DNA of 64,000 nucleotides, taken from Christensenella sp. UBA1750. Lineage in GTDB: Bacteria > Bacillota > Clostridia > Christensenellales > UBA1750. The stretch covers positions 3,161 through 67,160 of the forward strand of contig DCHO01000065.1 of the NCBI GenBank assembly GCA_002315655.1, read 5' to 3'. Shown here piece after piece: positions 10,533-64,000 of the stretch. Each line of letters opens with the position of its first letter. The first letter of the stretch is position 1. The notes beneath the pieces are model-generated. The model searched no databases, was not told where the DNA came from, and worked only from the letters and a program-made list of their open reading frames with translations. Both the position numbers and the translations under genes were made by a program.

Positions 10533-10630
10533 TGCACACCCTCCGTTGAAAGGTTTTCTATGGCAAGGGTATGAAATCCGCACGTTTATTAGAACCGCCA
10601 CCGTAGGGAAATCAGGTTCCACAAGCAAAA

Positions 10631-49900: not shown

Positions 49901-51593
49901 TGTCGCAATTTGTGCCCTTGATATTGAAGTGCTCATCCACCGTGTAGCCGGAAACAACCGTGCCGGAGCTATTACGGATGGTATAATCGGACAGATCGAG
50001 ATAATAGGAATAGGAGGTGCTGCTGCCGGCAGCGAGCTTCAGATTGCCGTTTCCGTCAAAGGCTAAGGATGTGGAGGGCGCGGTATTGCCGCTGCCGTTT
50101 AATGCCACACCGTAGGGGTAAAGGTCGCACAGCAAATAAACGGTGTCATTGCCGTCCACTGCCATGGCTGGGTCAATGAAAGCCGTGGAGGACGAACCGT
50201 TATACACATTTCCGTTGTCGCCCAAGTAATTGGCGAAAGCATACGTCCAGTTTTCTCCGCCGTCCTTGGAAACGCTCACCAGCGTGTCCAGTCCGCCGCC
50301 GTCATAAACGGTGTTCCAGCGGGCATCCGCCGCCGCGACCAGCGTTCCGTCGGATAAGGTCACAAGGGAGGGAATGCGGAAGGAGTTGCTGCCCGCCGTG
50401 CCCTGCGGGAAGGGATTGCCCTGCGTGGTCTTGGGCGTTTCCTGCCCCTTGCTCTCGGGCAGCGCGGAACCGAAGGCAGCAATCACGGCGGCGGTGTTCT
50501 TCACCACGTTTGTGTCGGTGTCCGCCTGGGGATAATCGCACCAGATGCAGAAGCACGCGCCGTAGGGGTCGGAAATGGTCGAACCCTGGAAGGAATTGAC
50601 ATTGAAGCCGGAGGCCTTCGTGGCGGTGCACTGCCAGTCGCTCTTGCCCAGCACCCAATAGTAGTCGCCGTGGGTGTTGACAACCTCAAAGCCGTAGGTG
50701 TTGTGCAGGGTGGAAGCGGACATAGGCGTGTAGCCCGACCAGCCGGAGGACCAGTAGAGAATCACAATATCGTTGTCAAAAGTGCCATAGGAGGTGGTGT
50801 TGTTGAAATAAATGCCGTCATTGAAGGCCATGGGGGTCATGCCCGCGTCCTTGATGATGGAAGCCAGACCGTTGACATAGGAGACGAAGGAGCCGTATTT
50901 GCGGCTGCTGATGAGGTTGCCGAAGCCCATGGAGCCGGAGGTGTATTTGTCGTTGGCGTACTCGTCCGAGCCCATGTTAAAGTAAGTGCAGCCTTTTTTC
51001 GCAAAATACTCCGCATACTTCTTAACCAGCGTCTGCGTAAAGGCCACGGCCGTGGAATTGGTCACATCCACCGTGCGGGCGGAACCGGCATACGCCACGT
51101 TGGAAAGGCCGCAGTATTCCATGCAGTCCACAATGGCGTCCATGTGCCCAGGGGTGTTGATGAGCGGGATGATGGAAATGCTCTTGGATTTGGCATAGGC
51201 CAGAATCTCATCCATTTCACTCTCGGTCAGCTCATCTACGGTAAAGTTGCTGTACGCTTCGTTGCCGCTATGCAGCCCTGCGGAAACCTGCGCGCTTGTG
51301 TAGGTCGTGCCGCCGACAGTCAGCGACAGATCATCCAGCAGGAAGCGCAGCCCGTCGTTGCCGATGCCCAGCTGCACATGGGTAAACCCGGCAGAGGCGG
51401 CATTGTCGATGATGCTCTTTAAGGAACTAACGGAGAAATACTTTCTGCCGCAGTCCACAAAAACGATCTTGATGAACGTGTCGTTGCCCGTGCTCCCGGA
51501 AGCCGCCACGGGCACCACACCGAGACCGAAAACGGTCGTCAGCGCCATCATGACCGCCAACATCCACGAAAGCACTCTCTTTCTCAGCTTCAT
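43932..51593 (-). CDS. secreted multi-catalytic glycosidase: GH20 (StrH-like beta-N-acetylhexosaminidase) + GH33 sialidase + GH2 (BgaA-like beta-galactosidase) + Ig-like/MucBP/FIVAR modules
   Basis: Signal peptide from the ATG at 51593 (GGAGGAG RBS). GH20: VDCGRKYFS, GNDGLRFLLDD, INTPGHMDA, FNMGSDEYAND. GH33: FRIPSLV plus Asp-boxes SKDGGENW, STDGGKSW, SKDSGATW. GH2: NAIRTTHNP, WSLGNE, EFVWTGFDYLGEP, DTFYFYRSQW. One uninterrupted 7.7-kb frame. Confidence 0.85.
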   Translation of the reverse strand: MKLRKRVLSWMLAVMMALTTVFGLGVVPVAASGSTGNDTFIKIVFVDCGRKYFSVSSLKSIIDNAASAGFTHVQLGIGNDGLRFLLDDLSLTVGGTTYTSAQVSAGLHSGNEAYSNFTVDELTESEMDEILAYAKSKSISIIPLINTPGHMDAIVDCMEYCGLSNVAYAGSARTVDVTNSTAVAFTQTLVKKYAEYFAKKGCTYFNMGSDEYANDKYTSGSMGFGNLISSRKYGSFVSYVNGLASIIKDAGMTPMAFNDGIYFNNTTSYGTFDNDIVILYWSSGWSGYTPMSASTLHNTYGFEVVNTHGDYYWVLGKSDWQCTATKASGFNVNSFQGSTISDPYGACFCIWCDYPQADTDTNVVKNTAAVIAAFGSALPESKGQETPKTTQGNPFPQGTAGSNSFRIPSLVTLSDGTLVAAADARWNTVYDGGGLDTLVSVSKDGGENWTYAFANYLGDNGNVYNGSSSTAFIDPAMAVDGNDTVYLLCDLYPYGVALNGSGNTAPSTSLAFDGNGNLKLAAGSSTSYSYYLDLSDYTIRNSSGTVVSGYTVDEHFNIKGTNCDTNLFCADSPYKVVRTGYLYLTKSTDGGKSWSAPTLLNLKTSSEMACLVAPGNSVVTADGTVVFPVYSYNGSNESQRVSFIYSKDSGATWQRSESLSYNWGSESECVELADGTLRFFFRNNNCKICYADAKASASGYAWSTPVVTNVSVNSNTQLSALSYSKTLDGKQAILISCPAGSEASGSNSSAGTARVNGKIFVGLVDEDGSMNFAYSMSVPSVHSANRFGYSALTENKDGSIAILYEDYTNGWGSGDDCLCKMNFATYLISAIAPGAAVGEKALSGSREEVNFDDGWKFHLGDVSDAYAASFDDSAWDSVTLPHDFSISQSYTTSGEAESGFLPGGTGWYRKSFSVEESEIGKTFLLNFDGVYSDAYVYCNGQYVGEHHYGYSAFAVDLTEYVKSGSNVIAVKAVNNIPSSRWYSGSGIYRDVTLISANPVHIALNGTAVTTPDIASGKGTVQVSAEIVNDSAADKTVTVTANIYRKNSSVPVASGSKSVTVKAGSTVSADISAVVSSPALWSTDDPNLYTVQNVVTVDGKEVDAVTDDFGFRWTEFDGTKGFSLNGETVKLNGVCLHHDQGGLGAAAYSDAIERQLRLMKDMGVNAIRTTHNPADENLIALCNELGLMVIEEAFDGWSQPKNGNSNDFSKYFNATISADNGLVGAESGETYAQYAITSMVRRDRNAPCVILWSLGNEITEGTSTSCSAYPTIAKNLIAYVQAQDTSRPVTIGDNTRVTDKTSVMGQVLSAVQSAGGVVGFNYASSSQLSSLNSYWGALVSSETTSATNSRDVYVSQSNNAGVDGEYHLTSYDTSAVSWGKTAHASLYDTLTKDYISGEFVWTGFDYLGEPTPYNGTGSGSVTGSGAMPNSSYFGIADTTGFVKDTFYFYRSQWNTKENTLHLVTAWDADNQYTTNGKTPVVIYSNAAKVELYRNGSLIGTATGTRHTTAAGHTYITYTTASDNTSVCTAVSGSGSTALYATFNVTYASGIISAKAYDESGKEITDSCAGETSVSTPGAAAKIRLTAEKGAANTGELVYFDVEITDVNGIFDTTAEPTINITLSGSGKILAVDNGDQATTKKGQQPSVLTSDTAASLPAYAGRALVIVQAGEGDEAITLTATASGLETAISSVSVNGGEIPDAPDEPEKAGFVDPDGGEELLDALNLSGDEGTTLTARFAGSKGTPAVSVGNLSVAAASINNGTVSITLKKPGETTVTVSYLGKTYPIALTVYKAYAKQQTIELDIGESTTFVDETGDYEAAYTKDRLDEAIASVTVQGTTVAAVPAVEGGLTKQTTLGSTCLIGYVSGSSKYFLTASGSSLSYTNDASKATVWSVSGSGSSIYLKSGSYYLRHNNNSLGLSTSTSNATWSYSSSKGFYYSSSTKSFFSSRTSTYYLCYSSGFKLSTSSTKYAAAYTVAEGTPGVEGKAYTTITISGLSGGETKVGIGDTLYTVKVKSPHQVITVYTVDDVGKTLKDSYTISGAEGTLYTVDAPALYGYVAPQPVSGTFTGDVTGTITLIYNLNTDKNALKNALDAAITEQGEYTDATYQGYAAALAAAKTVYNKPRATQTEVDEALSALNDARDALTDKVYTVTVHFTDAWGDKLAEDETQSGKKGEVYAFTPAPIDNYDTPEAVSGTFAKDDSFTLVYVLNTDKSTLKTLLDEALPAADYTTASFAPYSAALISGKAVYDNAKAKQGDVDQAVKAINDAKDALAELTYGSITVHLIDDAGETIGEDIFLEGETGTTYTVILDPIENYDTPDPITGSFGKNTADEANAVYVLNTDKTALKRLLDETLAESDYTAVTYVPYKQAMTDGKTVYDNARAMQTEVNAAVTAIENAKAALKKNGSTFTLDTDGIDSGSEYVLTNTSGYALGVSNGSITATKLTASNSALSNVSDNYVWIITGNTSNGYVLKNKSTGTYLTYSTSSNWFTISYTLKVSSTQTAWKRKTSGSYTRLYATASRKSLYLRYSSGFGIATSATSSCNLMLYKAQ
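44372..45539 (-). repeat. three tandem coding repeats of about 129 codons (MucBP-like beta domain plus FIVAR-like helical module) inside the giant gene
   Basis: Protein repeats (V/I)TV(Y/H)..D..G...........G..YT......NYDTP....G.F......YVLNTDK(N/S/T)(A/T)LK. At DNA level, 25-nt segments at 44633-44657 and 45020-45044 differ at one base and are 387 nt apart. Confidence 0.75.
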
Positions 51594-51728
51594 ATTCCGC
51601 TCCTCCATCCTCACAAAACGGACTATTTGCCCGTATATACTCTAACAATTATAGTATAACCCATTTGAAACAGAATGGAAACATCGCTGACCTAATTTTC
51701 GGGAAAATCTCCGCATTTTGCTGCCATA

Positions 51729-53351
51729 TCAGGCATTCTTTTCTCCAAGCAGATCGTGATAGTGCTTCCATCTTCCATAGATTTCATCGTACTGTTTCCC
51801 GTGTGCCGCGTCAGGCTCCACGGTCATGCACCCGGCAGAAGCCATGTTTTCGATGGCTTCTCCCATCTCCATTCCTCCGGCCATAGCACCCAAAATCGCC
51901 GAGCTGACCGCCGTGAGCAGCGTCTCCTCGGAGACCTCCACAGGTCTGCCCAGGACGGACGCAATCTGCCGCACCAAGAAGCCGTTTTTCAGCGGAATGC
52001 CGCCGCAGAGCACGATTTTGTCAAAAGGCAGTCCGTTTGCCGCAAAATGCTCCAAAATGATGCGGATGCTGCACGCAATCGACTGCACAAAGGCACAATA
52101 AAGGTCGGCGGTAGTGGTGGAAAGCCCCATGCCGAGTACGTTTCCGCGCAGCGCCATATTGTTAAGGACACAGCGGTTCCCGTTCCACCAGTCCAGTACC
52201 GTCACGGAATTGCTCCACGACTCTTTATCTGCCTGTTCCGACAGATATTCGTGAAGCCCTTTCCCCTTCGCTTCCGCCTGTGCGGAAATCTCGGAGGGCA
52301 CCATGGCTTTGCAGAACCAGTCCAGCATATCCCCCGCGCAGGGCGTTCCCGCGTCATACGACCACCTCCCCGGCACCATGCCGCCGAAGGTCACACCGTT
52401 GATGCCGCCGATGGTCATTTTTTCGTCAGAGGTGAAGGACATCGCCATAGAGGTGCCCACGGTGATGGCAATGGTTTTCGGCTCCTTTGCGCAGAAGTAA
52501 AGCCCCGGCGTGCTGCCGTCGCCCATGGGCACAGCCACGGGGATTCCCGCTTTCAGCCCCAAACGCTCTGCCGCAGCTTTCTTGAGAACTCCGCAGGGCG
52601 CGGAATAATCCGAGATTTCCCCCGCGAATTTCGCAAAGAAGGCCGCCGCAAAGCCGTCCGCCAGCGCGTCTAATTCATCCTTCTCCGGCCAGCCGGTCTT
52701 TTCGCTCCACAAGCCCTTGAACCCGGCGGAATACAGGCTGTGCACCTGCTTCCCGGTCAGCAGCAGCGCCAGCCATTCGCCCAGGTCGCAGAACCGCTCC
52801 GTCGCGTCAAAGACTGCCCTGTCCTCCTCATAGGTTTCCAGCAGCTTGGGCAGGGCATATTCGCAGTTGCAGGTTCCGGCATAGTTTTCAAGCACGGCAA
52901 ATTTGCCCTCGTTTTCGTATAGTGCCTGAATCCTGTCGGCCTGTCCCGCCGCCGCATGGTGCTTCCACAGCTTGATATAGGCCATGGGATGCTTTTCAAA
53001 CCCGGGAAGCTCGCTCACCACCGTGCCGTCCGATAGGCACGGCACCATAGTGTAGGCCGTAGCGTCAATGCCGATCCCGATGATTTCGTCAGGGCTTACG
53101 CCGGACTTCTCCAGCGCGCCCCGGATGCTTTTGACCAGCGCGTCCTTATAGTCCTGCGGCTCGGCCAGCGCCGCATCCGCGGGCAGCGGCGTTCCGTCCG
53201 GGAGATTCCCGGTAACGACCCCATGCGGGAAAATCGCAACGCTCTCCCCCATCACCTGCCCGCTTGCGCAGGACACCACCACCGCTCGGGCGGACAGCGT
53301 GCCGTAATCTATTCCAATGGCATATCCGTTCTTTTTCAGCATTTCCTTCAT
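51729..53351 (-). CDS. FGGY-family carbohydrate kinase (ribulokinase-like)
   Basis: N-terminal YAIGIDYGTLSARAV actin-fold phosphate-1 motif, GIGIDATAYT, and a length and pattern resembling AraB. GAGGGTGG RBS. Confidence 0.75.
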   Translation of the reverse strand: MKEMLKKNGYAIGIDYGTLSARAVVVSCASGQVMGESVAIFPHGVVTGNLPDGTPLPADAALAEPQDYKDALVKSIRGALEKSGVSPDEIIGIGIDATAYTMVPCLSDGTVVSELPGFEKHPMAYIKLWKHHAAAGQADRIQALYENEGKFAVLENYAGTCNCEYALPKLLETYEEDRAVFDATERFCDLGEWLALLLTGKQVHSLYSAGFKGLWSEKTGWPEKDELDALADGFAAAFFAKFAGEISDYSAPCGVLKKAAAERLGLKAGIPVAVPMGDGSTPGLYFCAKEPKTIAITVGTSMAMSFTSDEKMTIGGINGVTFGGMVPGRWSYDAGTPCAGDMLDWFCKAMVPSEISAQAEAKGKGLHEYLSEQADKESWSNSVTVLDWWNGNRCVLNNMALRGNVLGMGLSTTTADLYCAFVQSIACSIRIILEHFAANGLPFDKIVLCGGIPLKNGFLVRQIASVLGRPVEVSEETLLTAVSSAILGAMAGGMEMGEAIENMASAGCMTVEPDAAHGKQYDEIYGRWKHYHDLLGEKNA

Positions 53352-53605
53352 TATTTTTCCACCCTCATTTCAGTCCTATTTATATGGATAAGCTTTTCCG
53401 CTGTGCAATCATTTGATTTCCATTATACAGGCGGTCAGGCAATCACGCAACCGTTCGCCCGCTTCCTTCTTTGAAATGCCTGTTCAAGCGCTTGTTATTT
53501 TCGCTGTGTGTGCTATACTTGTGTTTGTCACAGACCGTTACGCTGATTTGACAAAACGCACATGAATTGTGCGGGGAAAACATACTGTGGAAAAGAGATC
53601 AAGAT

Positions 53606-54241
53606 ATGTTCAGAAAGATGAAAAACGGTGAAGAAGAAAAGGTTGCGGAGGTGCTGACCGAGGCGTTCATAGAATACCCGCTCTACCGGGAGTGCCTGCG
53701 CGGCTGCACAGATTATCGCCATCAGTTGACGAAGTTTATGTTCGTTTGGGTAAATATATGGCAGGATTCCACCTATGTGAATGAAGAAATGAACTTCGTG
53801 GCCTGCCTTGAAAAGCCCGAGGACAACAATCCTTCGCCGTTTTCGCGCAGGATGCGGAGATTGTTGGTCGATCAGTTCCGCGATTATTCCTTAGCCTCAC
53901 GGCTTCGGATGCTCCAATACCTGCTTATATCCGAGAGGGTTGTAAAAAAATACAATCAGAAAGGCGACTACTATCTTCACAGCCTTGCAACGATAGGAAC
54001 AGCCCGGGGCAGCGGAATCATTTTCCGTTTTTTCAACGAAGTTGTGGGCAGCAGACCCTTTCTCTGCGAAACCCACACGGAGCGAAACAAAAGGCTTTAT
54101 GAGCGCATGGGCATGGTTTTGTGTGAGGCCTTGACCTGGCACCATCTCCCCCACTATCTCCTTCGGCGTCCCGAGGATGCCGACTGTAATTATGAATCGG
54201 CAATCGCAGAGCACAGCCGGAAAGACCCCTCCCCGCAATGA
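53606..54241 (+). CDS. GNAT-like acetyltransferase (tentative)
   Basis: LHSLATIGTARGSGI and CETHTERNKRLYERMGM resemble GNAT motif A and the C-terminal strand. Start assumed at the ATG at 53606 (weak RBS). Confidence 0.45.
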   Translation: MFRKMKNGEEEKVAEVLTEAFIEYPLYRECLRGCTDYRHQLTKFMFVWVNIWQDSTYVNEEMNFVACLEKPEDNNPSPFSRRMRRLLVDQFRDYSLASRLRMLQYLLISERVVKKYNQKGDYYLHSLATIGTARGSGIIFRFFNEVVGSRPFLCETHTERNKRLYERMGMVLCEALTWHHLPHYLLRRPEDADCNYESAIAEHSRKDPSPQ

Positions 54242-54280
54242 ACCGACGGATTCTTTGCAATACAGGCATCCCCCATACAC

Positions 54281-54324
54281 AAAGCAGCCCGATCTGTCAT
54301 TAAGACAAATCGGACTGCTTTTAT
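54281..54324. terminator. intrinsic terminator between the convergent GNAT-like and condensation-domain genes
   Basis: 13-bp stem AAAGCAGCCCGAT / ATCGGACTGCTTT (one mismatch), followed by TTTTAT. Confidence 0.6.
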
Positions 54325-54364
54325 GCTGAATCGCTTCAATATGTATGAAGTCTTTCGTAATGTT

Positions 54365-55774
54365 CTATTTCACGGAATCCATCAGCTCGCCGATGGTGAT
54401 GTCGGGATGCTCCATCCCCATTCGGATCAGTCGGACGGTCTCCTCATGCAGCCTTCCGATTTCCTCCTCCGTAAAGTTGAAGGGGCGGTATTCATAGAAG
54501 AAATCCATGCCGCCGTCCGTGAAGCTGGGCACAATGAGGGCGTATAGGTTGCTGGCGAAATGGCCGGTGGTCATGCCGTCAAATTCAATGTTCATTCCTT
54601 CAATGGTGAAGGTCGAATCCAGCGGAACGCAGGAAAGAACCATGGAAACATCCGCTTCGGTCATAAGATGCTTTTGATTTTTTGATTCGATCTTAAAACT
54701 ATCCATGATAGAGAAATCCGAATGGCGCATGACGGCGAGCTGCTCCTGTGTGACTGTCTTCAGAGCCTCCGTAAAGGTAGCATCCTCCTTGACGATGGTA
54801 CGCAGATGCTGTGCCTGAATGCGCAGTCCGCCGCAGTGAAGGTCATCCACGCGCACCCGGCGGTTGTTGACCATGGCGAAGGTCACGTTCTCCGAGCGCT
54901 CATTGATCGCGGAAAGATAGCTGCGCATTCCCAGAATGATGAGGCTCTGCAGCGGCGCATGATACTCCCGCGCAAAGTCGTCCACTCTGCGAATCTCGTC
55001 ACCGTCCATGTGGCAGCGCAGGGTCAGGCTTTTGTCGTGCAACAGGTCAACATAAATTGCGAAACGGTAATTCGGATCCCGCCTCCTTTTGCGCGTCTTG
55101 TTCAGCATCCGCATCCCGTCAACTCCCGCACAGAAAGAAGGATTGTCCGGTGGATAGACGGAATTGAAGAACGCCGCATCCGCATCATGCCGCTTTTGGT
55201 CATGCTTCCGTTCCAGATCGCGTATCAGGCTGTCCTCAAACCGGGTCAGCGGCGCGGGCATTTCCGTTCCGTTTTCCAGCGCCAGATACACGCTTAAGAG
55301 ATCCCTGTAGAAGATAAACACGGCAGCAATGTCCATGTTCATGTGGGAAACGTTGAAATACAACCCGCTCCGACCGTCCCAGGTCGTAAAGAGGATTGTG
55401 CGAAAGACTTGACCCTTCAGATAGCGGATCGTCTTCTTTGCATCCTCAAGCAGGTAGGCCACCATATCCTCCCGGGTCTTTCCCGAAAAATCGGCAAATC
55501 CGATTTCCGGCTCCGGCAAAGAGGGCAGGAAGTAAGAGCGGGTGCCTTTCAGGGTTCTTACAAAGTGTTCCCGAAGGCAGTCGTTGCGTTCCTGCTCGAT
55601 GATCAACGCCTTTTTGAAAATCTGCGGATCCAGCCTGTGGTCGGTGATGATATAGGTCGGAATTTGCGCCACATTCTTGTGAAGACAGAAATTCAACTGA
55701 AAGGCGTTTAGCTCCTGGCTGGCGGAAAGCTCGTACAGTTCAAGTCCCTTATACTCTTTTTTTCTCACGTTCAT
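54365..55774 (-). CDS. stand-alone NRPS-type condensation (C) domain protein
   Basis: 469 aa from the ATG at 55774. Active-site-like motif SHMNMDIAAV (HxxxD of HHxxxDG). N-terminal YELSASQE is like the C1 motif. No A or T domain in the same ORF. Confidence 0.7.
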   Translation of the reverse strand: MNVRKKEYKGLELYELSASQELNAFQLNFCLHKNVAQIPTYIITDHRLDPQIFKKALIIEQERNDCLREHFVRTLKGTRSYFLPSLPEPEIGFADFSGKTREDMVAYLLEDAKKTIRYLKGQVFRTILFTTWDGRSGLYFNVSHMNMDIAAVFIFYRDLLSVYLALENGTEMPAPLTRFEDSLIRDLERKHDQKRHDADAAFFNSVYPPDNPSFCAGVDGMRMLNKTRKRRRDPNYRFAIYVDLLHDKSLTLRCHMDGDEIRRVDDFAREYHAPLQSLIILGMRSYLSAINERSENVTFAMVNNRRVRVDDLHCGGLRIQAQHLRTIVKEDATFTEALKTVTQEQLAVMRHSDFSIMDSFKIESKNQKHLMTEADVSMVLSCVPLDSTFTIEGMNIEFDGMTTGHFASNLYALIVPSFTDGGMDFFYEYRPFNFTEEEIGRLHEETVRLIRMGMEHPDITIGELMDSVK

Positions 55775-55838
55775 ATTCCTATCCCGGTTGTTTCCAATGA
55801 CATAACCGTTTTCGAGGAAACACAGATAGTCTCCTTCA

Positions 55839-55867
55839 ATACTATTTCTCTTAATGCTGATGGTCAA
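55839..55867 (-). promoter_or_regulatory. candidate own promoter of the condensation-domain gene
   Basis: Minus strand reads TTGACC (55867-55862), 17 nt, TAGTAT (55844-55839). Confidence 0.5.
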
Positions 55868-55914
55868 GAAAAAGAGAGCAAATTGCATTTTCAGAGCACT
55901 TTACTCTCTTTTTC
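55868..55914 (-). terminator. possible terminator after the FtsX-type permease gene
   Basis: Arms GAAAAAGAGAG (55868-55878) / CTCTCTTTTTC (55904-55914), with a 25-nt loop. Confidence 0.4.
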
Positions 55915-55939
55915 AATCAACCTTATACGGTCTGCAATC

Positions 55940-58900
55940 TTACTCGATTGCTTTTAAGGATTCCACCATACTGATTGCCTTCATCCGCTTGGTCATGAAC
56001 AGGTTCACAAGGACGGTGAAGCCCATGGTGATGCAGGCGGAATAGAGGTAGCTGACAAATTTGATGTCGTGGGAGAAGGTAACCATACTGACCTCGACGG
56101 TCTGGATGATGAACTGCGCCATGAGATAACCCAGGAAGGAGCCCACCAGCACGCCCAGCACGGACATGATGATGTTCTCTCTGAAAATATACATATTGAC
56201 TTCCTTATGATTGAAGCCAAGCACCTTGACGGTAGCAATCTCACGCACACGCTCGGAAATGTTGATGTTGGTGAGATTATAAACCACGATAAAGGCCAGA
56301 ACTCCGGCGCAGAGAATCATGACAAACACGACGATGGAAAGCGAGGCCATCGTATCCTTGACCGCATTGCTCGCCATATCCGTGAAGTATGCGCTGACGA
56401 TGCGGCTATCCTTTGCCAGCCATTCCTCAGAGAAGGCATCGTGGCTGCCCATGTCATCAGTGCAACACAGGATCACCTGGGAATAGCCGTTCTTCTCCCC
56501 GGTCACTTTCTCATAATAGTCGGGAGAAATATACACATAGTTATAAATGTAGCATTCGGCGATCCCCGTTACCTTCATGGTGTACGTTTTGTCGTTGAAG
56601 GTCGTGCAGATCTCGTCCCCGATTCCGACTCCGAGCTTTTTGGAGAGCTTATTGGTGATTACCGCGCCATCGTCCGTCAGGGCAACAGGTGTCTTGGTAT
56701 CCGGGTCGCGCAGATTTATGATCTCGGCGATGCTGTCTTTGTTTTCGGGAACGAATACAAAGGTGTCCTCCATCTGGACTTTGCCTTCCGGATCCGAAGC
56801 CTTGCAGTCATAGGTGACAACGCAGATCTGGCTCTCAACCCGCGGATCTTCCTCAAGCTGGGTGATCAGATCATCCAACTTCTCTTTTTCGCTGGTCTGG
56901 TTCAGGTAGAAGGTAACGTCCTCACGGCTCAACTCACCATACTGAATATCGGAAATGGGCGAAATCGCATTGTTCAGACCGAAGCCCGCAACCACCAACG
57001 CCATGCAGCCGGCAATGCCCAGCACCGTCATGAACAGGCGGAGCTTGTAGCGGAGCAGGTTTCTGGCCGTCAGCTTCTGGAAGAAGGAGAAATGCTTCCA
57101 CAGCCAGGGCAGCTTTTCCAGGAATATCTTTTTACCCGCCTTGGGAGCCTTGGGGCGCATCAGCGCCGCAGTGGTGGTGCGCAGCTCCTTCCAACAGACG
57201 ACCGCCGCAACCGCAACCGTGCAGATGAGTGCCACGACAACGGAGACCAGCAGCATTCCGATGGGAACCTTGATGATGAAATAAGGCAGACTATACAGAA
57301 TACTGTACGCCCCGAAGATGACGCGGGGCAGAATCTGCGACAGTGCCACGGGGCCGACAATGCAGCCGCCCACGCAGGCCAGCGCCGCATACACCAGATA
57401 CTTGGACGCCGTTTCAAACTGGGTGTAGCCCAGCGCCTTGTAGGTGCCCATCTGGGTGCGTTGCTCGTCAATCATGCGGGTCATGGTGGTTAAGCAGACC
57501 AGTGCCGCGACCATCAGGAAGAACACGGGGAACACGTCGCCGATGGCGTCGATTCGCATGGCGTCCTGCCGGAAGTTCGCATAGTTCACCATGATGTCCT
57601 CGCGGGAGAGCACATACCACTTGCCCGCCACCACGTCGGAAATCATGCTTTTCGCATTCTGAATGCGATTGAAGCCGCTGGACAGCTCCTTTTCCACTTC
57701 GGCCATGGAATCGGTGTATTCCGCCATGCCTTCTTCATATTCATCCTGCGCATCGTCCAACTGTTCTTCGGAATCCACAAGCTGCCGGTGCGCATCATCC
57801 AGTTCTTTCTGTGCCTCAGCCTTCTTCTTTTTCAGCGTTCTCTGACCGCTTTTCAGGCTGGCTTTGGCATTTTCCAGCTCTCGCTTGCCGTCCTCGATTT
57901 CCTGGGCAGCCGCGGCAAGCTGTCGCTCCGCCTCTACCTTTCCGGCTTCATATTCTCTTTCCCCGGCTTCCAGCTCGATTCTTGCGCTGTTCAGCTCGGA
58001 TTCTGCCGATTCGAGCTGGGCTTTGTATTCATTGTACTCTGCCATCTGCGCATCGGCTTCGTCCATCTGCGCCTTGGCTTCGTCCAATTCTCTCTGCGCG
58101 TCGTCCAATGCCGCCTGCGCTTCATCGTAGGCTTCCAGCATCTCCTCTTTGCTCACTTCACTGCCGACCGACAGGTTGGCAAGCTCCTCTTCCTGCCGTG
58201 CAATGGACTCCTCGAGATCCGCAATTTTCTGCTCCATCTCGATGTATTCCGGTGTTCCGGGCTCCATCGTGCTTAGCTGCTCCTGATAGTTCTGCAACTG
58301 GGCCTTTGAAGCTTCCAGTGCAGCCTGAAGGATTGCAAGATCCGTCGCGCTGATGGTGTGGCTTTCCTCCTGATCTATCTGCGCCTTGATCTGATCCAGC
58401 GTAGCCTGTGCCATGGACACTGCCCGCTGTGCCTGCTCATATTCCTCTTTGGCCTGTTCGTATTCTTCGATGGCATCCTGATACTCGGCGGTGGCGGCGG
58501 AGAATTCTCTTTCCGCCTTCTCATACTCGGATTTGCCTGCATTGTATTCCGCCCAGCCGCTGTCCAGCTGCGCACGCGCATCCTTCAGCTTGGCCTCGGT
58601 TTCCTTCTTTTTCTGCTCATATTCGGCAATACCGGCAGCCAGCTCCTTCTTGCCGCTCTGGATGGAGGCCTCCGCGTGTCTTAACTGTCTCTCCGCGTCC
58701 GCGATCTGTTTGTCCGCTTCCTCGGAGCCGGCCTCATAATCCTTCCAGCCCTGCTCCAATGCCAGCAGGCCGTCGTCGATCTGCTTTCTCGCATCCTCCA
58801 GCTGGGTGCGCGCTTCACTCAGCTCTTTGTCTGCCTTTTCCTTGCCCTCGTTGTATTCCTCTTCCGCATCCGCGATCTGCGCGTTTGTTTCATCGGCAAA

Positions 58901-59671
58901 GAGGTTATACTGCCTAATGCCGAGCTTTTCCAGCTTCTTTGTCAACTGACTTAAGATCTCGTCGTACTCCTCGTCAAAGGCGGAAATCCCTTCGTCGTGG
59001 CACTTTAGGGTCACATACATTTCCGTGTAGCGCTCATACAGGAAGTTTTCGGCGGGGATCATGATATAGCTTGAAATGGATCCGCTGCCGATGGAAGAAG
59101 TTCCGAAGGAGTAGGAAATATAGAGCGGGGATTCGATGATGCCGACGACCTTGAAGGAACGTCTGGAAAGCACATCGTCGGTCACGGTTTCCCCGGCGTA
59201 TTCTTCAAAGGTGATTTCATCTCCGATGGCATACGGAACGCCGAGAAGGGTGGATTTTATGACAACGCACTCGTCCTCACCGGTCGGCATACGGCCTTCC
59301 CGCAGCACGGGCAGGTTGATGCTGTTTTCCATGTCCGCCGGAATGGCCATGACCTTTGCGACCACATATTCCCCGTTGTTCTCCGTGATGAGGTCAGCCG
59401 AATAGGTCAGCGTGACGTGCTTGATCTCATCCAGCTCCGCCACAGCGTCCGCGTCTTCTCTGGAAAAGCCGACGGTGGAAAGAATCTCCACATCCATCAG
59501 GTTCTGTGCGGAGAAATAGTCCTCGGCAGTGCCGTACATACTGGGCGCAGTCGCCTTGACGCCGACAAAAAAGCCCACGCCGACCGCAATGATCAGCATA
59601 ATGGACAGAAAACGCCCCAGAGACTTTTTGATCTCCCGGAATGTATCTTTGAAAAGTGCCTTCTTTTTCAC
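55940..59671 (-). CDS. MacB/FtsX-family ABC permease (two FtsX modules) with a roughly 420-residue coiled-coil insertion in the first extracytoplasmic domain
   Basis: GTG start at 59671 (AGAGAGG RBS). TM1 FLSIMLIIAVGVGFFVGV. Two 4-TM FtsX blocks. Residues about 258-678 are A/E/Q/K-rich heptad-like sequence. Confidence 0.85.
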   Translation of the reverse strand: MKKKALFKDTFREIKKSLGRFLSIMLIIAVGVGFFVGVKATAPSMYGTAEDYFSAQNLMDVEILSTVGFSREDADAVAELDEIKHVTLTYSADLITENNGEYVVAKVMAIPADMENSINLPVLREGRMPTGEDECVVIKSTLLGVPYAIGDEITFEEYAGETVTDDVLSRRSFKVVGIIESPLYISYSFGTSSIGSGSISSYIMIPAENFLYERYTEMYVTLKCHDEGISAFDEEYDEILSQLTKKLEKLGIRQYNLFADETNAQIADAEEEYNEGKEKADKELSEARTQLEDARKQIDDGLLALEQGWKDYEAGSEEADKQIADAERQLRHAEASIQSGKKELAAGIAEYEQKKKETEAKLKDARAQLDSGWAEYNAGKSEYEKAEREFSAATAEYQDAIEEYEQAKEEYEQAQRAVSMAQATLDQIKAQIDQEESHTISATDLAILQAALEASKAQLQNYQEQLSTMEPGTPEYIEMEQKIADLEESIARQEEELANLSVGSEVSKEEMLEAYDEAQAALDDAQRELDEAKAQMDEADAQMAEYNEYKAQLESAESELNSARIELEAGEREYEAGKVEAERQLAAAAQEIEDGKRELENAKASLKSGQRTLKKKKAEAQKELDDAHRQLVDSEEQLDDAQDEYEEGMAEYTDSMAEVEKELSSGFNRIQNAKSMISDVVAGKWYVLSREDIMVNYANFRQDAMRIDAIGDVFPVFFLMVAALVCLTTMTRMIDEQRTQMGTYKALGYTQFETASKYLVYAALACVGGCIVGPVALSQILPRVIFGAYSILYSLPYFIIKVPIGMLLVSVVVALICTVAVAAVVCWKELRTTTAALMRPKAPKAGKKIFLEKLPWLWKHFSFFQKLTARNLLRYKLRLFMTVLGIAGCMALVVAGFGLNNAISPISDIQYGELSREDVTFYLNQTSEKEKLDDLITQLEEDPRVESQICVVTYDCKASDPEGKVQMEDTFVFVPENKDSIAEIINLRDPDTKTPVALTDDGAVITNKLSKKLGVGIGDEICTTFNDKTYTMKVTGIAECYIYNYVYISPDYYEKVTGEKNGYSQVILCCTDDMGSHDAFSEEWLAKDSRIVSAYFTDMASNAVKDTMASLSIVVFVMILCAGVLAFIVVYNLTNINISERVREIATVKVLGFNHKEVNMYIFRENIIMSVLGVLVGSFLGYLMAQFIIQTVEVSMVTFSHDIKFVSYLYSACITMGFTVLVNLFMTKRMKAISMVESLKAIE

Positions 59672-59690
59672 AGCGCGCCTCTCTTATCTC

Positions 59691-60395
59691 TTACCACTCA
59701 ATTTCGCTGACAGGCATGGGATTCTCATTCATCGTCACGCTCTCCACCTTGCCGGAACGCATACGGATCACGCGATCCGCCATGGGGGCGATGGAAGAGT
59801 TGTGCGTGATGAGCACGACCGTCATGCCGGTCTTTTTGCAGGTGTCCTGCAAAAGAGAAAGAATCATTTTGCCGGTAACATAGTCCAGTGCGCCGGTAGG
59901 CTCGTCGCACAGAAGGAGCTTGGGGTTTTTTGCCAGCGCACGGGCAATGGCCACGCGCTGCTGCTCGCCGCCGGATAACTGGGAGGGGAAATTGTCTTTA
60001 CGCTCGTCCAGCCCGACCTGGCTCATCACCTCGTCCACATCCAGATGCTCCGGGCAGATCTGCACCGCCAGCTCGACGTTTTCCTTCGCCGTCAGGTTCT
60101 GGATCAGGTTATAGAACTGGAACACAAATCCGATGTCAAAACGGCGATAGTCAATCAGCTGGGAATCGTTCAGCCGGCTGACATCCTTTTCATCCACAAT
60201 GATCGAACCCTCATCGCTGGTGTCGATTCCGCCAAGGATATTGAGGATCGTGGTCTTTCCGGCGCCGCTGGCGCCCAGGATGATTGCAAGCTCCCCTTTT
60301 TCGATGGAAAAACCGGCGTGATCCACGGCGTTGATCACCGTGTCGCCCATCTGATAACGCTTGCATACATCCGTAAATTCAATATACGCACTCAT
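59691..60395 (-). CDS. ABC transporter ATP-binding protein (MacB/LolD-type)
   Basis: Walker [10 protein letters not shown], signature [15 protein letters not shown], Walker [22 protein letters not shown]. Confidence 0.9.
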
Positions 60396-60437
60396 GCTCT
60401 GTCCCTCATTTCATTTCCGTTGTCCGGCTTTCTCCGC

Positions 60438-60668
60438 TCAGTGAACGCCGTTTTTGTTCAGGTAAGCCAGCACATCGCCCACCGTGACGAATTCCATGGC
60501 GGTGCTCTCATCGATCTCAACACCGAAGGCATCCTCAAGCTCCACCACGATGTTCATCATGGCCAGAGAATTGAGCCCCAGATCGGTCTTGAGCTGGGTA
60601 TCCTCACTGATCTTGTTGAGGTCAATCTCGGTGTACTGTGCAATGATCTCCTTGATTTTGTCCATCAT
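60438..60668 (-). CDS. acyl/peptidyl carrier protein
   Basis: 76 aa. Phosphopantetheine attachment motif DLGLNSLAMM. GGAGGA RBS 7 nt upstream. Confidence 0.85.
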   Translation of the reverse strand: MMDKIKEIIAQYTEIDLNKISEDTQLKTDLGLNSLAMMNIVVELEDAFGVEIDESTAMEFVTVGDVLAYLNKNGVH

Positions 60669-60749
60669 GTGAATGTCCTCCGATATATGTAAATAATACT
60701 ATTTCGCTACCATCCCACGAGCGTGTTTTCAGAGATTCGGAAGCACACG

Positions 60750-62492
60750 CTAAAGTGCGATGGTGCCCCTGCGCACCTCGGCACTGTTGCGCAGTACCTT
60801 GTGGGTCGCGTTCTTCGGGAATTCCTCCAGCGTCACATACAGGCTGACAATGCGCTTGTAGAAGGCCAGGCTGTGGTTGATCTTGCGGATATCCTCCGCA
60901 ACGCGCTTCTGAATCTCCTCGATGTCCAGCATGGAAAGCTCACTGTCCGGGCGGACGGAAACGGCTGCCGCGATGTTGTGGATCTTCTTGTTCTTGACCT
61001 TTTTCACCGCGTCATAGACGACAATATCCCGGATATAGTCACAGGCGCTTTCGATCTTGCCTTCGATCTCCTCGGGAGAAACGTTTTTGCCGTTGTCAAG
61101 GATAATCAGGTTCTTTTTGCGCCCGGAGATGAACAGCTCGCCCTTTCGGTTCACATAGCCGAAATCGCCGGTTTTGAACCAGCCGTCCTCAAAGGATACG
61201 CGGTTGGATTCCTCGTCATGATAGTAGCCGGAGGTCACGTTGTCCCCCTTCACCATCACTTCTCCGATGCCGACGGAATTGGTCTTGTCGATGCGGATGG
61301 TAACGCCCGGAACCGCGTTGCCCACGGATTGCAGCGTTCCCCGCCCTTTCAGATTCACGGCGACAAGCGGCGAGCATTCCGTGATCCCGTAGCCGTGCAT
61401 AATGTCAAAACCCATATCATCCAGACACTTGGCCACGCGCTCGTTGATCGGCGCACCGCCGCAGACGAACACATTGAGCTGCCCGCCGAATGTTTCCTTT
61501 ATATGGGCGAAAAGGCGGTCTCTTATGTCGATTCCCAGGAAACGCAGAAAACGCGACACGAACAGCGCCGTTTTGAGCTTGGCTTCTTTGCGGCCTTTCC
61601 GTGCGTTCATCCAGATGCTTGCGTAAAACTCATTGAGAAACAGGGGCACAACAAACGCAAAATCCGGCTTGTACGTCTGGAAATCGCGGGTCAACCGCTT
61701 CAGCCCGGCGTTGATGCCGACATTCACGCCCAGATAAACGGCGGGCAAAATATGACAGTTGAACTCAAAGGAATGATTCATCGGAAGCAGGGAAATGGAT
61801 TGGTTCCCACTCGGGAAAACTTCCATGCTGGAATAGGTGTTAGCGCAAATATTTCTATGTCTGAGCTCCACGCCCTTGTTTGCGCCCGTTGTCCCGGAAG
61901 TAAACTGGATTACGGCAAGATCCTCCGGCTGCACGGGATAATCCATAAATGCGGTATCGCCCTGCTCGTTTATCAAACGATTCCCGGAAGCCGCAAGTTC
62001 CTCAAAAGCAAAGGTTTTCTCCGGCATTTCCCCGGCGCAGCCCCACGCAATGACGCTCTGCACCGAAGGCTTTGTGTCCCGAATGTGCAGCGCCGTGTCC
62101 ATGAATTTTGCGGAACAGATCAGGTGCTCCACATTCCCCTGCTCGGAAAGAGCGCACAGATCCTCCAGGGTCAGCTCCTTGTCCAGAGGAACCGCAACGC
62201 CGATTCCCGTGACCGCCAGATACGCAACGACCCAGAAATAGGCATTTTCCCCTAATATCCCGATGTGACTTCCCTGCATATTCATCCGGCACAGCATCGT
62301 GCCAAAGGCCTTCACATCCCGAACGAGATCATCAAAGGTATGCTCGATGACCCGGGTTCCCTTGCTCTCCCGAAATGCGACCTTGCCGAGATGAAAGCGT
62401 TCGACCACAGAGAGAAGCTGTTTTACGGTCGTTATCCTGAATGCGGAAATGATTTCTTTTCTGTACTTGCTACAATCTCTTCTGTTTCTCAT
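60750..62492 (-). CDS. AMP-dependent synthetase/ligase (fatty-acyl-AMP/ACP ligase-like)
   Basis: Adenylation core motifs IQFTSGTTGANKGVELRHRN, GYGITECSP, WFKTGDFGYVNRKGELFISGRKKNLII. Confidence 0.85.
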   Translation of the reverse strand: MRNRRDCSKYRKEIISAFRITTVKQLLSVVERFHLGKVAFRESKGTRVIEHTFDDLVRDVKAFGTMLCRMNMQGSHIGILGENAYFWVVAYLAVTGIGVAVPLDKELTLEDLCALSEQGNVEHLICSAKFMDTALHIRDTKPSVQSVIAWGCAGEMPEKTFAFEELAASGNRLINEQGDTAFMDYPVQPEDLAVIQFTSGTTGANKGVELRHRNICANTYSSMEVFPSGNQSISLLPMNHSFEFNCHILPAVYLGVNVGINAGLKRLTRDFQTYKPDFAFVVPLFLNEFYASIWMNARKGRKEAKLKTALFVSRFLRFLGIDIRDRLFAHIKETFGGQLNVFVCGGAPINERVAKCLDDMGFDIMHGYGITECSPLVAVNLKGRGTLQSVGNAVPGVTIRIDKTNSVGIGEVMVKGDNVTSGYYHDEESNRVSFEDGWFKTGDFGYVNRKGELFISGRKKNLIILDNGKNVSPEEIEGKIESACDYIRDIVVYDAVKKVKNKKIHNIAAAVSVRPDSELSMLDIEEIQKRVAEDIRKINHSLAFYKRIVSLYVTLEEFPKNATHKVLRNSAEVRRGTIAL

Positions 62493-62649
62493 TTCATAAC
62501 TTTACCAATCTAATCTATTCGTATATATCCATAAAAGCAAATGAGTGCTGTCTGCACGACACTTCGATTATATGGAAAAACGCCGCCCCCGGAAGCTTTT
62601 TCATACAACCGAAACGGCCATTTATATTATACATAACAATATATAAAAA

Positions 62650-62735
62650 AGAAACAAGTTCGGAACTTTTTTCCTGTTAAATTTTTCAATGGAGTTAGAA
62701 ACAAGTTTCTCTTTCGGAAAGGACTTTTTTCCTGT
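62650..62735. repeat. paired short direct repeats in the AT-rich region upstream of the ligase operon
   Basis: AGAAACAAGTT at 62650-62660 and 62697-62707. ACTTTTTTCCTGT at 62665-62677 and 62723-62735. Confidence 0.6.
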
Positions 62736-62739
62736 CGAC

Positions 62740-62771
62740 GGCACCCTTCCCGTGCTTCCGGGAAGGGTGCC
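62740..62771 (-). other. 12-bp GC-rich hairpin downstream of the MATE-like gene (terminator-like, no U-tract)
   Basis: GGCACCCTTCCC (62740-62751) / GGGAAGGGTGCC (62760-62771), with an 8-nt loop. Confidence 0.5.
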
Positions 62772-62820
62772 ATCGGCCATATCTTCCGCCACAGTTAGCC
62801 GTCGAAGGCTCGCAGCGGCC

Positions 62821-64000
62821 TTATGCCGTCTGCTCTTTCGTGAACACAAACCCGTTGCGGTTGAAGGAGGTCGTCAGGACGTAGTTCTTCTCCTTTGTCT
62901 GCTCCAACAGGCTATTGAGCACATGGGCGTTCAACGATTCGACCTTGTTGTTCTCATCCACAAAGTTAAACAGCGTCCCGTCGTCCCGGATGATGATGCG
63001 CACCACATCGCCCTTGAAGAGCAGCGTGCATTCGGAGAGCACCTTTTTTCCCGGATTCTTCTCCATCACGCGGGTATAGAACTCCTCTATCAGCAGATCG
63101 GTTTTTTCAGTGTCAAAGCCTCTTGCTTCCAAATTGCCGTGCAGCCATTCCCGCACTTCAATTATGGAACCCTTTGTCACATAAAGGTCAAAGGAGATGC
63201 CCTCCTCGCCGAAGTCCTCCACATAGATCGGAAAACCCTTTTTGCCTTTACGAGGAATGCGGATGAGTGTATAAAAGCAAAAGGCAAAGTAGGGGCTCAG
63301 GGACATACCGACCGTAATCCCCGTAAATCCCCACAAAAAGCCAAACAGCAGGGACAGAAGCAGGGGCGCAAAAACATCCCGCAAAAAAGCAAGAAAGCAC
63401 GCCTGACCCGGCTTTTCCACGGAGCAGGAAACCGCAGAGCCCATGTAACACGCGCTGAACCCCAATACCGTAAAGGCCATAATCCTGGACGCAGTAACGG
63501 CAGCTTGAATTGTGGTTTGCGTCTCCAAACCGTAAAGAATCGGCATCAGCGGGGCCGCAAAGAAAAAGAAACCGGAGATTCCGAAGGCCATAATGACCGT
63601 AGCGCGTGTAACCTTCCTAAAAATCAGATTCAGGCCGTGGTTATTCTTTTCCCCAACAAAGCAGGTGATCAAACCAACGCTGGCGGCATTCAGGGAAATA
63701 TACAGTTCACACACCCCAAAGACCAGATTTATCACAGAATAGGCCGGAATATATTCCATCCCGCAGGAGGAAATGATGATCTTGTTCATCACAATGTCTA
63801 CGACCGCAAGGAACAGATAATACATATACTGGCTGTACCCCAGAACGATGGAATGTTTCAGTATCCCGAAATACAGGCAAAGACGCAGCTTAAGATTGTT
63901 GGATTTTTTCAAAAAGTGCAAACAGTAAAGGAGGGCACGGAGAAAAACCCCGATGCAGGTCGCCATCCCAAGACCTGCAATACCAAAGCGGCGAGACAGA
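62821..64000 (-). CDS. MATE/MOP-superfamily transporter fused to a roughly 140-aa cytoplasmic C-terminal domain (5' end outside the window)
   Basis: Multiple TM helices typical of the C-terminal half of MATE. A soluble tail follows, from about YVEDFGEEGISFDLYV to the stop at 62821. The frame appears to continue to the window edge. Confidence 0.65.
   Translation of the reverse strand, partial: LSRRFGIAGLGMATCIGVFLRALLYCLHFLKKSNNLKLRLCLYFGILKHSIVLGYSQYMYYLFLAVVDIVMNKIIISSCGMEYIPAYSVINLVFGVCELYISLNAASVGLITCFVGEKNNHGLNLIFRKVTRATVIMAFGISGFFFFAAPLMPILYGLETQTTIQAAVTASRIMAFTVLGFSACYMGSAVSCSVEKPGQACFLAFLRDVFAPLLLSLLFGFLWGFTGITVGMSLSPYFAFCFYTLIRIPRKGKKGFPIYVEDFGEEGISFDLYVTKGSIIEVREWLHGNLEARGFDTEKTDLLIEEFYTRVMEKNPGKKVLSECTLLFKGDVVRIIIRDDGTLFNFVDENNKVESLNAHVLNSLLEQTKEKNYVLTTSFNRNGFVFTKEQTA

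Follow-up and report, generated by a model that had tools for sequence, protein, structure and literature searches.

The 64,000-nucleotide stretch of Christensenella sp. UBA1750 analysed here (GCA_002315655.1, contig DCHO01000065.1, positions 3,161 to 67,160 of the forward strand; hereafter the window) carries near its end five minus-strand genes, for an acyl-AMP-forming ligase, an acyl carrier protein (ACP), an ABC ATPase, a giant FtsX-type permease and a stand-alone condensation (C) protein. On balance, we favour the reading that these genes represent a divergent member of the fatty-acid amide (FAA) pathway of gut Clostridia, equipped with an export machine of its own and encoded in one operon (54365-62492). 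That the cluster makes an acyl conjugate by the FAA route can be proposed with good confidence; the export of this product by the pump is put forward tentatively, as a possibility that falls just short of probable. The pathway type is already known, the FAA/OAA type being reportedly that of Chang et al. 2021 (Nat Microbiol 6:792). As judged from sequence comparison, what is new is its occurrence in other Clostridial orders, the altered motif of the C protein and the presence in the operon of a type VII ABC pump to which a coiled coil is fused.

Open reading frames (ORFs) of the window were listed and searched against Pfam and NCBIfam profiles. An earlier note on this DNA, written from the letters alone, had taken the ligase, the carrier and the lone C domain for an FAA-type lipo-amide pathway of gut Clostridia. 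This interpretation is supported by the match of the C protein to OaaC, a characterised enzyme of this type, by the free-standing nature of its relatives and by the recurrent linkage of the same genes. All genes named in that note were present at the positions and in the minus-strand order it had claimed, and the motifs TSGTTGxxKG, GLNSL and SHMNMD that it quoted were all found in the sequence (Table 1).

Biosynthetic genes and proposed operon structure

The C protein (Pfam Condensation, 1.3e-24) had one strong match among all PDB sequences, namely 12kh_A, which aligned over the full length (E 2.5e-40) and represents OaaC of Coprococcus eutactus, a stand-alone C domain that condenses acyl-ACP with aminovalerate in vitro (PMC13310621). 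The second-best match, a CDA starter C domain, followed at 1e-5, and because of this distance between OaaC and the next solved C domain the window protein is assigned to the FAA type. The rank of the starter domain is also in agreement with an earlier report placing FAA C domains closest to starter C domains (PMC13310621). An exhaustive HMMER search of 1.84 billion representatives returned 580 clusters at E<=1e-3, 86 of them at E<=1e-30. Among the 150 clusters listed of the 580, nearly all relatives were free-standing and 440-490 aa long or were shorter fragments. The closest shared 48-49% identity, and the cluster of OaaC (P0216) took a middle rank (1.8e-35). The length (470 aa) and homology of the window protein agree with the definition of FAA C proteins as free-standing, ~300-520 aa long and apart from the canonical C domains of non-ribosomal peptide synthetases. 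Its catalytic motif reads SHMNMDI, the His and Asp of which are invariant in 17 and in 82 relatives. These data support its placement as an FAA-type, albeit divergent, member of the family.

The OAA pathway of C. eutactus consists of three proteins, and no transporter has been described with it (Singh, Grant & Gulick 2026, PMC13310621). Similarly, the window encodes a free-standing AMP-ligase, an ACP and a C protein of the OaaC kind (~460 aa), the catalytic His and Asp are kept, and the predicted logic is that of an acyl-ACP donor and a free amine acceptor; in contrast to OAA, the window operon includes a pump.

It should be added that the C genes of three related loci (L020, L022 and L023), 38-39% identical to that of the window and with the motif SHIIMDA, had no detectable ligase, ACP or pump in 10 kb of flank on both sides and are apparent orphans. 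At two other loci a second stand-alone C gene follows straight after the first (L009:11412-12752 and L032:10001-12808), which may mean two acceptors or products.

The ligase matched Pfam AMP-binding (4.9e-56) and AMP-binding_C_3 and carries the core motifs FTSGTTGANKG, GYGITE and TGD. It stays under all NCBIfam equivalog cut-offs, including that of the long-chain-fatty-acid-CoA ligase model (3e-64), and its nearest solved relatives in PDB are the McyG A domain, MenE, malonyl-CoA synthetase and FadD5. The fatty acyl-AMP ligase (FAAL) 3pbk gave a partial match only (4.5e-15) in the same comparison with PDB sequences. The ACP (PP-binding, 1e-16; ACP models just under their cut-offs) has its phosphopantetheine serine within LGLNSL, and the family as a whole shows the motif LGL[N/C/T/S]SL instead of DSL. 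Ligases of related loci, 37-50% identical to that of the window, likewise adjoin an ACP (tblastn). We infer that the ligase loads a fatty acid onto the adjacent ACP; OaaA is known to load OaaACP, and the OaaA/ACP/C chemistry has been reconstituted in vitro (PMC13310621). No phosphopantetheinyl transferase (PPTase) was detected among the ORFs of the 64-kb window, and this enzyme must therefore be encoded elsewhere; the 30 other window ORFs scanned included neither an amino-acid decarboxylase nor a PPTase.

From ligase through ACP, ATPase and permease to C, the genes are separated by gaps of 81, 42, 19 and 51 bp. The last value becomes 162-168 bp with the homology-supported start of the C gene: the gene caller placed it at ATG 55888, whereas homologues align from ATG 55777 or GTG 55771. 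A perfect TATAAT hexamer lies in an AT-rich stretch 134 nt 5' of the ligase ATG; its -35 element is weak, which is why the consensus scan omitted it. Downstream, the hairpin flanked by the stops of the C gene (54365) and of the convergent 211-aa gene (54241) is likely the operon end; its T-run is better on the plus strand. Upstream, a stem devoid of T-run, possibly acting as a terminator, would separate the MatE gene from the ligase operon. Because of the tight gaps, the TATAAT before the ligase and the hairpins at both ends, the genes from ligase through C are interpreted as a single operon, with MatE as a separate unit. The hexamer matches behind the promoter which the earlier note had assigned to the C gene were no commoner than in shuffled sequence, so that such an internal promoter may or may not exist. 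Overall, promoter and terminator consensus scans gave no matches above shuffled-sequence expectation, and a scan of 53300-64000 with Rfam gave no match. The ~130-nt leader between TATAAT and ligase start (62493-62625, minus strand) could fold into a long hairpin at ~62560-62615, the stability of which was not significant against shuffles (z -1.7).

Table 1. Features of the candidate FAA operon and its immediate neighbours, in window coordinates
Feature	Position	Strand	Basis or remark
Acyl-AMP-forming ligase, ANL superfamily, long-chain acyl-CoA-synthetase-like, 580 aa	60750-62492	-	Pfam/NCBIfam, motifs
Acyl carrier protein, stand-alone, 76 aa, PP-binding	60438-60668	-	Pfam
ABC ATPase, type VII (MacB/LolD/FtsE/DevA) kind, 234 aa	59691-60395	-	Pfam/NCBIfam
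Giant tandem MacB/FtsX-type permease, 1243 aa, 8 predicted transmembrane helices	55940-59671	-	Pfam, hydropathy, AlphaFold2, Foldseek
Predicted coiled-coil hairpin within permease extracytoplasmic domain 1, residues ~234-679	57635-58972	-	AlphaFold2, periodicity
Stand-alone condensation (C) protein, FAA type, 470 aa from homology-supported start	54365-55777	-	Pfam, PDB match
MatE-family gene, 3' part in window, runs off window end	62821-64000	-	Neighbour, not core
211-aa gene, weakly GNAT-like, convergent	53606-54241	+	Neighbour, not core
TATAAT -10 hexamer, candidate operon promoter	62626-62631	-	Read from sequence; putative function
Perfect 13-bp stem, 6-nt loop, just past MatE stop	62740-62771	-	Read from sequence
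Hairpin, 15/17 pairs, 5-nt loop, between convergent stops	54282-54320	.	Read from sequence

The pump and its linkage to the pathway genes

The ATPase (Pfam ABC_tran, 3e-34) has both Walker motifs and the signature LSGGEQQ, and is 70-84% identical across the operonic related loci. Its NCBIfam matches were DevA (6e-60), FtsE (9e-57), LolD (2e-56) and MacB (5e-55); since all of them lie below equivalog cut-offs, it is classified as a member of the LolD/FtsE/MacB/DevA family and not as an ortholog of any named one. In the permease, Pfam recognised two FtsX (2.7e-24) and two MacB_PCD (1.3e-17) stretches. Hydropathy places transmembrane (TM) helix 1 at residues 21-39, followed by a 670-residue extracytoplasmic domain and TM2-4 (709-825), and, in the second half, TM5 at 879-897, a second extracytoplasmic domain and TM6-8. 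The protein is thus predicted to be two MacB/FtsX modules fused in one chain and served by a single ATPase gene.

The structure of permease residues 1-830 was modelled with AlphaFold2 from 39 homologues (mean predicted local distance difference test, pLDDT, 80.6). The model shows a beta-rich MacB-type domain at 60-225 and an uninterrupted, helical antiparallel hairpin with an ascending arm (234-434), a small helical tip (435-507) and a descending arm (508-679); model confidence is lower at 315-328 and 609-625, possibly the place of a hinge. Best Foldseek matches of the model were MacB, LolCDE and YknZ (probability 1.00 for these three), Spr0694/5 and HrtB, followed by the coiled coils of SMC, Rad50 and PrgA, and a sequence match in PDB was to YtrF. 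The hairpin has a high content of E, A, Q, L and K and a hydrophobic (heptad) periodicity of 3.5 residues, and its DNA carries 21-nt repeats. By the arithmetic of 1.5 Å per residue, an arm of ~200 residues would extend over roughly 30 nm if straight. A length of ~30 nm is of the order of the Gram-positive wall thickness.

The earlier note had called this coiled coil exceptional; it is real, but it is a trait of a whole family, as a search found more than 2,392 related giant permeases of 1,100-1,500 aa. Some of these are annotated as "ABC transporter permease", whereas P0053, the permease of locus L015, is listed in NCBI as "Chromosome partition protein Smc", a label evidently derived from the coiled coil. 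Overall, the family seems not to have been characterised. For the window protein itself, an SMC-like or chromosome-associated identity was considered and rejected, given that the NCBIfam SMC and Rad50 models scored far below cut-offs and that the protein has eight TM helices.

Loci related to the operon were collected by a scan of one genome per GTDB species with a 5-sequence alignment. This returned 80 loci, all in Clostridia metagenome-assembled genomes (MAGs) of Oscillospiraceae, Christensenellales, Acutalibacteraceae and "Faecalibacterium sp." from human, goat, horse and other guts. The species of the window was not itself among the GTDB representatives with the cluster. Ligase and ACP adjoin the C gene in most of the 80, and tblastn of the window proteins found the linkage in dozens. 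The order ligase-ACP-ATPase-giant permease-C was seen in L009, L011, L015, L018 and L019 and, on truncated contigs, in L013, L014 and L017; L012 and L016 show the permuted order C-ligase-ACP-ATPase-permease. Elsewhere, C-ligase-ACP(-PPTase) units with C proteins of a second lineage are accompanied by a convergent permease-ATPase pair (L028, L033, L035 and L036), and L094, the C protein of which belongs to a third, distant lineage, has the order ATPase-permease-ligase-PPTase-C-ACP. Distant C genes (30-33% identity) stand in ligase-C-ACP or C-ACP units without a pump. An all-versus-all comparison of ten exporter-linked loci left only five components in common, namely ligase, ACP, ABC ATPase, FtsX permease and C, and an Sfp-type PPTase was present in 4 of the 10.

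In a neighbour-joining tree of 207 C proteins, calculated without support values, the operonic exporter-linked ones form one clade of 24 tips, with OaaC in a different clade. The pump is adjacent in all 11 loci of this clade that have enough flanking sequence, the window included. A permease tree, built likewise, places all operonic-linked pumps within one clade. Since the linkage recurs in four gene orders and with at least three C lineages, a functional connection is indicated rather than inherited synteny alone. Judging from these sequences, ligase-ACP-ATPase-giant permease-C is a conserved unit of a distinct C clade in Oscillospiraceae, Christensenellales and related MAGs, which is reported here as new.

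Five further loci (L005, L007, L008, L010 and L021) lie on contigs that break off within 20-370 bp of the C gene on its upstream side, perhaps because assembly stopped in the repetitive sequence of the coiled-coil gene. No FtsX coding was seen in the 298 bp upstream of C in L010, where the genes may be arranged differently.

The predicted pump shares with LolCDE, MacAB-TolC, DevBCA, HrtBA, YknXYZ and Spr0693-0695 the FtsX four-TM module and an extracytoplasmic domain of the Porter/Sabre type. Its LolD/MacB/DevA-like ATPase also resembles those of type VII ABC extractors of lipids and amphiphiles, and a lipid-like substrate is plausible. Unlike these systems, it has two FtsX modules fused in one 8-TM chain. 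Unlike MacAB-type tripartite pumps, it has a coiled-coil hairpin of 450 residues in the first extracytoplasmic domain: no gene for a separate membrane-fusion adaptor was found in the operon or in the ten related loci, and the hairpin is fused into the permease instead. The lack of an outer-membrane partner as in MacAB-TolC is expected for a Gram-positive type cell. According to the earlier note, exporters were not known from the previous description of such clusters, and, to the extent of two later papers (PMC13310621 and PMC10871352), this holds, as neither mentions a transporter. A literature search returned nothing relevant that links FAA clusters to ABC transporters or describes fused coiled-coil FtsX permeases.

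Flanking genes and base composition

The MATE-like transporter was confirmed on a full 571-aa copy of the gene in a metagenome contig (L001:393-2108; Pfam MatE, 1.3e-15). The protein has an extra cytoplasmic C-terminal domain of ~130 aa, and its C-terminal 147 aa had no Pfam or PDB match. Beyond the window end, upstream of MatE, lies another gene, the final part of which (L001:1-363) is a 96% identical copy of this C-terminal domain, so that the two genes are tandem paralogues. No MatE homologue was detected in the related loci by tblastn, and MatE together with the 211-aa gene occurred only in contigs of the same organism; both are, from this distribution, neighbours and not conserved parts of the system. 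Of the two exporters that the earlier note had placed inside the cluster, the ABC/FtsX pump is therefore conserved with the biosynthetic genes, but the MATE protein is not integral to it.

The 211-aa gene is convergent, as stated previously, and its proposed GNAT-like nature is weakly supported. It had no Pfam or NCBIfam match and one homologue (61%) among 5.8 billion proteins. Matches to GNAT proteins in PDB were weak (E 0.056-0.084), and the AlphaFold2 model was of low confidence (pLDDT 57), although its top Foldseek matches were almost all GNAT N-acetyltransferases (best 4.9e-4, TM-score ~0.3).

Further away, window positions 43932-51614 (minus strand) encode a secreted multi-enzyme of 2560 aa with GH20 hexosaminidase, BNR sialidase and GH2 domains and repeats, which from this composition looks like a single-chain machine for degradation of host glycans of the mucin type. 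An FGGY sugar kinase gene is located between it and the cluster. The window also encodes a glycyl-radical enzyme with its activase (33611-36599) and SpoIVA (9057-10628), pointing to the host as an anaerobic spore-former, as would suit a gut Clostridium resembling Oscillospiraceae.

The GC content of 53606-64000 is 0.522, against 0.556 +/- 0.008 (minimum 0.539) in equal-sized windows elsewhere. GC per gene is lower in the block (Mann-Whitney p ~5e-4), as are GC1, GC2 and GC3, and 60-nt lines average 31.3 G+C inside versus 33.4 outside, where 25% of lines have 30 or fewer. The three spot counts on such lines given in the earlier note were exact, though chosen at extremes. The shift of ~3.4 points is real but small and comes partly from the amino-acid content of membrane and coiled-coil proteins. 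Accordingly, of the description of a "compositionally distinct, possibly acquired" block, the GC drop stands, and its reading as a strong signal of horizontal transfer was rejected, the difference being just 3.4 points. No mobility genes were found. The sequence of the window C gene itself occurred in only four metagenome contigs, which are independent and have identical flanks. A metagenome scan with the flanking FGGY kinase for an empty site returned only relatives of no more than 36% identity. Acquisition of the block is possible, and the GC drop is weak evidence for it.

Competing explanations and biological meaning

If the favoured reading holds, the ligase would activate a fatty acid and load it onto the ACP, as suggested by homology and conserved adjacency, with the PPTase supplied from elsewhere in the genome. 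By analogy with its homologue OaaC, the C protein would, through its His/Asp motif, couple the acyl group of the acyl-ACP to a small amine that diffuses freely, and an N-acyl amide would be released. This amphiphilic product would partition into the membrane. The type VII ABC system, assembled from two ATPase copies on the pseudo-dimeric 8-TM permease, might then extract it from the outer leaflet by mechanotransmission, as do LolCDE, MacB, DevCA and HrtBA, and hand it outward along or through the wall-spanning hairpin, a sequence of events suggested by gene linkage and fold. The substrates of those four systems are lipoproteins, glycolipids and heme.

Several observations, on the pump as well as on the C protein, weigh against this reading. 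The contexts sampled for giant permeases at 34-38% identity (L089-L091) are of housekeeping type, without genes for C, A (adenylation) or T (thiolation) proteins: one permease is beside valS, that of L090 has a CHAP hydrolase directly downstream (L090:11731-12849) and that of L091 lies near a PcsB-like M23 peptidase (L091:740-2152). Two closer relatives (L092 and L093; 49-50% identity) nest inside the clade of operonic-linked pumps and are found beside sortase and giant surface proteins, the 6 kb around them being free of C, A and T genes. The pump can therefore not be tied strictly to the pathway. Such unlinked copies next to CHAP/M23 hydrolases, sortase and surface proteins hint, by analogy, at an FtsEX-like role other than transport. 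It should also be considered that neither tree has support values. In L095, an Sfp-type PPTase lies directly upstream of an ATPase/giant-permease pair (L095:4484-9414) that likewise has none of the C, A and T genes in the adjacent 6 kb; downstream of it comes another FtsX pump, a shorter one. Judged by these sequence contexts, the pump is a module of general occurrence, and in one branch of its family the coupling to FAA-type genes recurs.

Along these lines, the biosynthesis might proceed as described above, with the ABC/giant-FtsX pair serving as a general Clostridial envelope machine that either acts as a mechanotransducer in the manner of FtsEX or extracts a different lipid of the envelope. 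The acyl product would in that case be used at the envelope, for example in acylation of a wall- or membrane-associated amine; alternatively, the pump would deliver or expose the acceptor or an exogenous fatty acid. The very large size of the permease family, most sampled members of which have no C, A or T genes nearby, the surroundings of the close relatives and of those in L090 and L091, and the PPTase adjoining the otherwise unlinked pump of L095 are all consistent with this. FtsEX itself, moreover, belongs to the type VII ABC complexes and works with a long coiled coil outside the cytoplasm, reportedly that of its partners PcsB, EnvC and CwlO (PMC7668044 and PMC6705773). In FtsEX, however, the coiled coil belongs to a separate hydrolase or activator and nothing is transported, whereas here it is within the permease, and no hydrolase partner is encoded in the operon or elsewhere in the window. 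Furthermore, the place of the pump between ACP and C is kept across the whole C clade, linkage of the pump recurs where the gene order differs, and extraction of lipids and amphiphiles from the outer leaflet has well-established models in LolCDE, DevCA, HrtBA and MacB. We regard the envelope machine as a rather unlikely explanation, yet as a serious rival.

With regard to the C protein, 127 FAA C domains have been described by the signature (D/H)HxxxD(S/A/G), with S, A or G at position 7 in 95% of them (PMC13310621). The window motif SHMNMDI departs from it at both ends, with S in position 1 and I in position 7, whereas OaaC, only 22-24% identical and placed in a separate clade of the tree, reads DHRLMDS. 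Throughout the exporter-linked clade, position 1 is S, C, M, N or T and never D, and position 7 is mostly I, L or F. The signature is a statistical one of the described set and not a catalytic requirement; the change may nevertheless mean that the acceptor, or even the bond formed, differs. The gene content departs from known systems as well. The ecf and ebf clusters of Enterocloster clostridioformis and E. bolteae encode a PPTase, an SCP2-like protein and a hydrolase in addition to C, T and A proteins (Elmassry et al., PMC10871352), and their products are N-acyl amides, namely acyl-lysines and acyl-putrescines (PMC10871352). The window shares with them the stand-alone C, T and A genes, but its cluster is devoid of the PPTase, SCP2-like lipid-transfer protein and hydrolase, and has the ABC ATPase and giant permease between ACP and C.

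The altered motif could accordingly mark another acceptor, such as an amino acid, a polyamine, an alcohol (giving an ester), a lipid head group or a peptide, and the product could be a surfactant or membrane lipid instead of a host signal. In addition to the motif and the low identity to OaaC, the lysine and putrescine acceptors of ecf/ebf point in this direction, and a pump of the lipid-extractor kind would fit a membrane-resident product. We nonetheless consider this improbable: the catalytic His and Asp and the fold family are retained, every characterised member makes amides of small amines or amino acids, and no pathway for an alternative acceptor is encoded in the window. Finally, the ligase might be just a common acyl-CoA synthetase serving lipid metabolism, next to an unrelated ACP in fortuitous order and with no cluster at all, but this is hardly credible. 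In its favour, the best family and PDB matches of the ligase are CoA ligases (FadD-like, MenE and malonyl-CoA synthetase, below cut-offs), and the enzyme may lack the insertion by which FAALs block CoA binding. Against it, the same ligase lineage adjoins ACP and C in at least 20 loci from different Clostridia orders, the intergenic gaps are tight, the ACP is of the cluster-specific type and the homologous OaaA loads OaaACP.

FAAs of gut Clostridia act on human G-protein-coupled receptors and have been tied to inflammatory bowel disease. How they leave the cell is not stated in the descriptions of FAA clusters (PMC13310621 and PMC10871352), and in one study the product was measured in cell pellets. 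Described clusters are nearly all from Lachnospiraceae, with 95% of the surveyed ones in Clostridium cluster XIVa; in contrast, the relatives of the window operon are MAGs of Oscillospiraceae, Christensenellales and Acutalibacteraceae, and its clade would extend the pathway to these other major gut lineages, with an altered active-site signature that hints at different acceptors. One may go further and suppose that the giant 8-TM FtsX permeases with fused wall-spanning coiled coils are lipid extractors, a subclade of which co-evolved with FAA genes to carry membrane-embedded N-acyl amides out of the outer leaflet and across the thick Gram-positive wall; we hold this to be conceivable but doubtful. 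If true, such a permease would do the work of MacAB or DevBCA as a self-contained unit that needs no adaptor, the operon would provide the first lead to the substrate of the giant permeases, and at least some gut FAAs would be actively exported and not leaking from cells. The physical coupling of synthesis to a MacB/Lol-type pump thus offers a hypothesis both for the export of FAAs and for the function of this abundant family of permeases.

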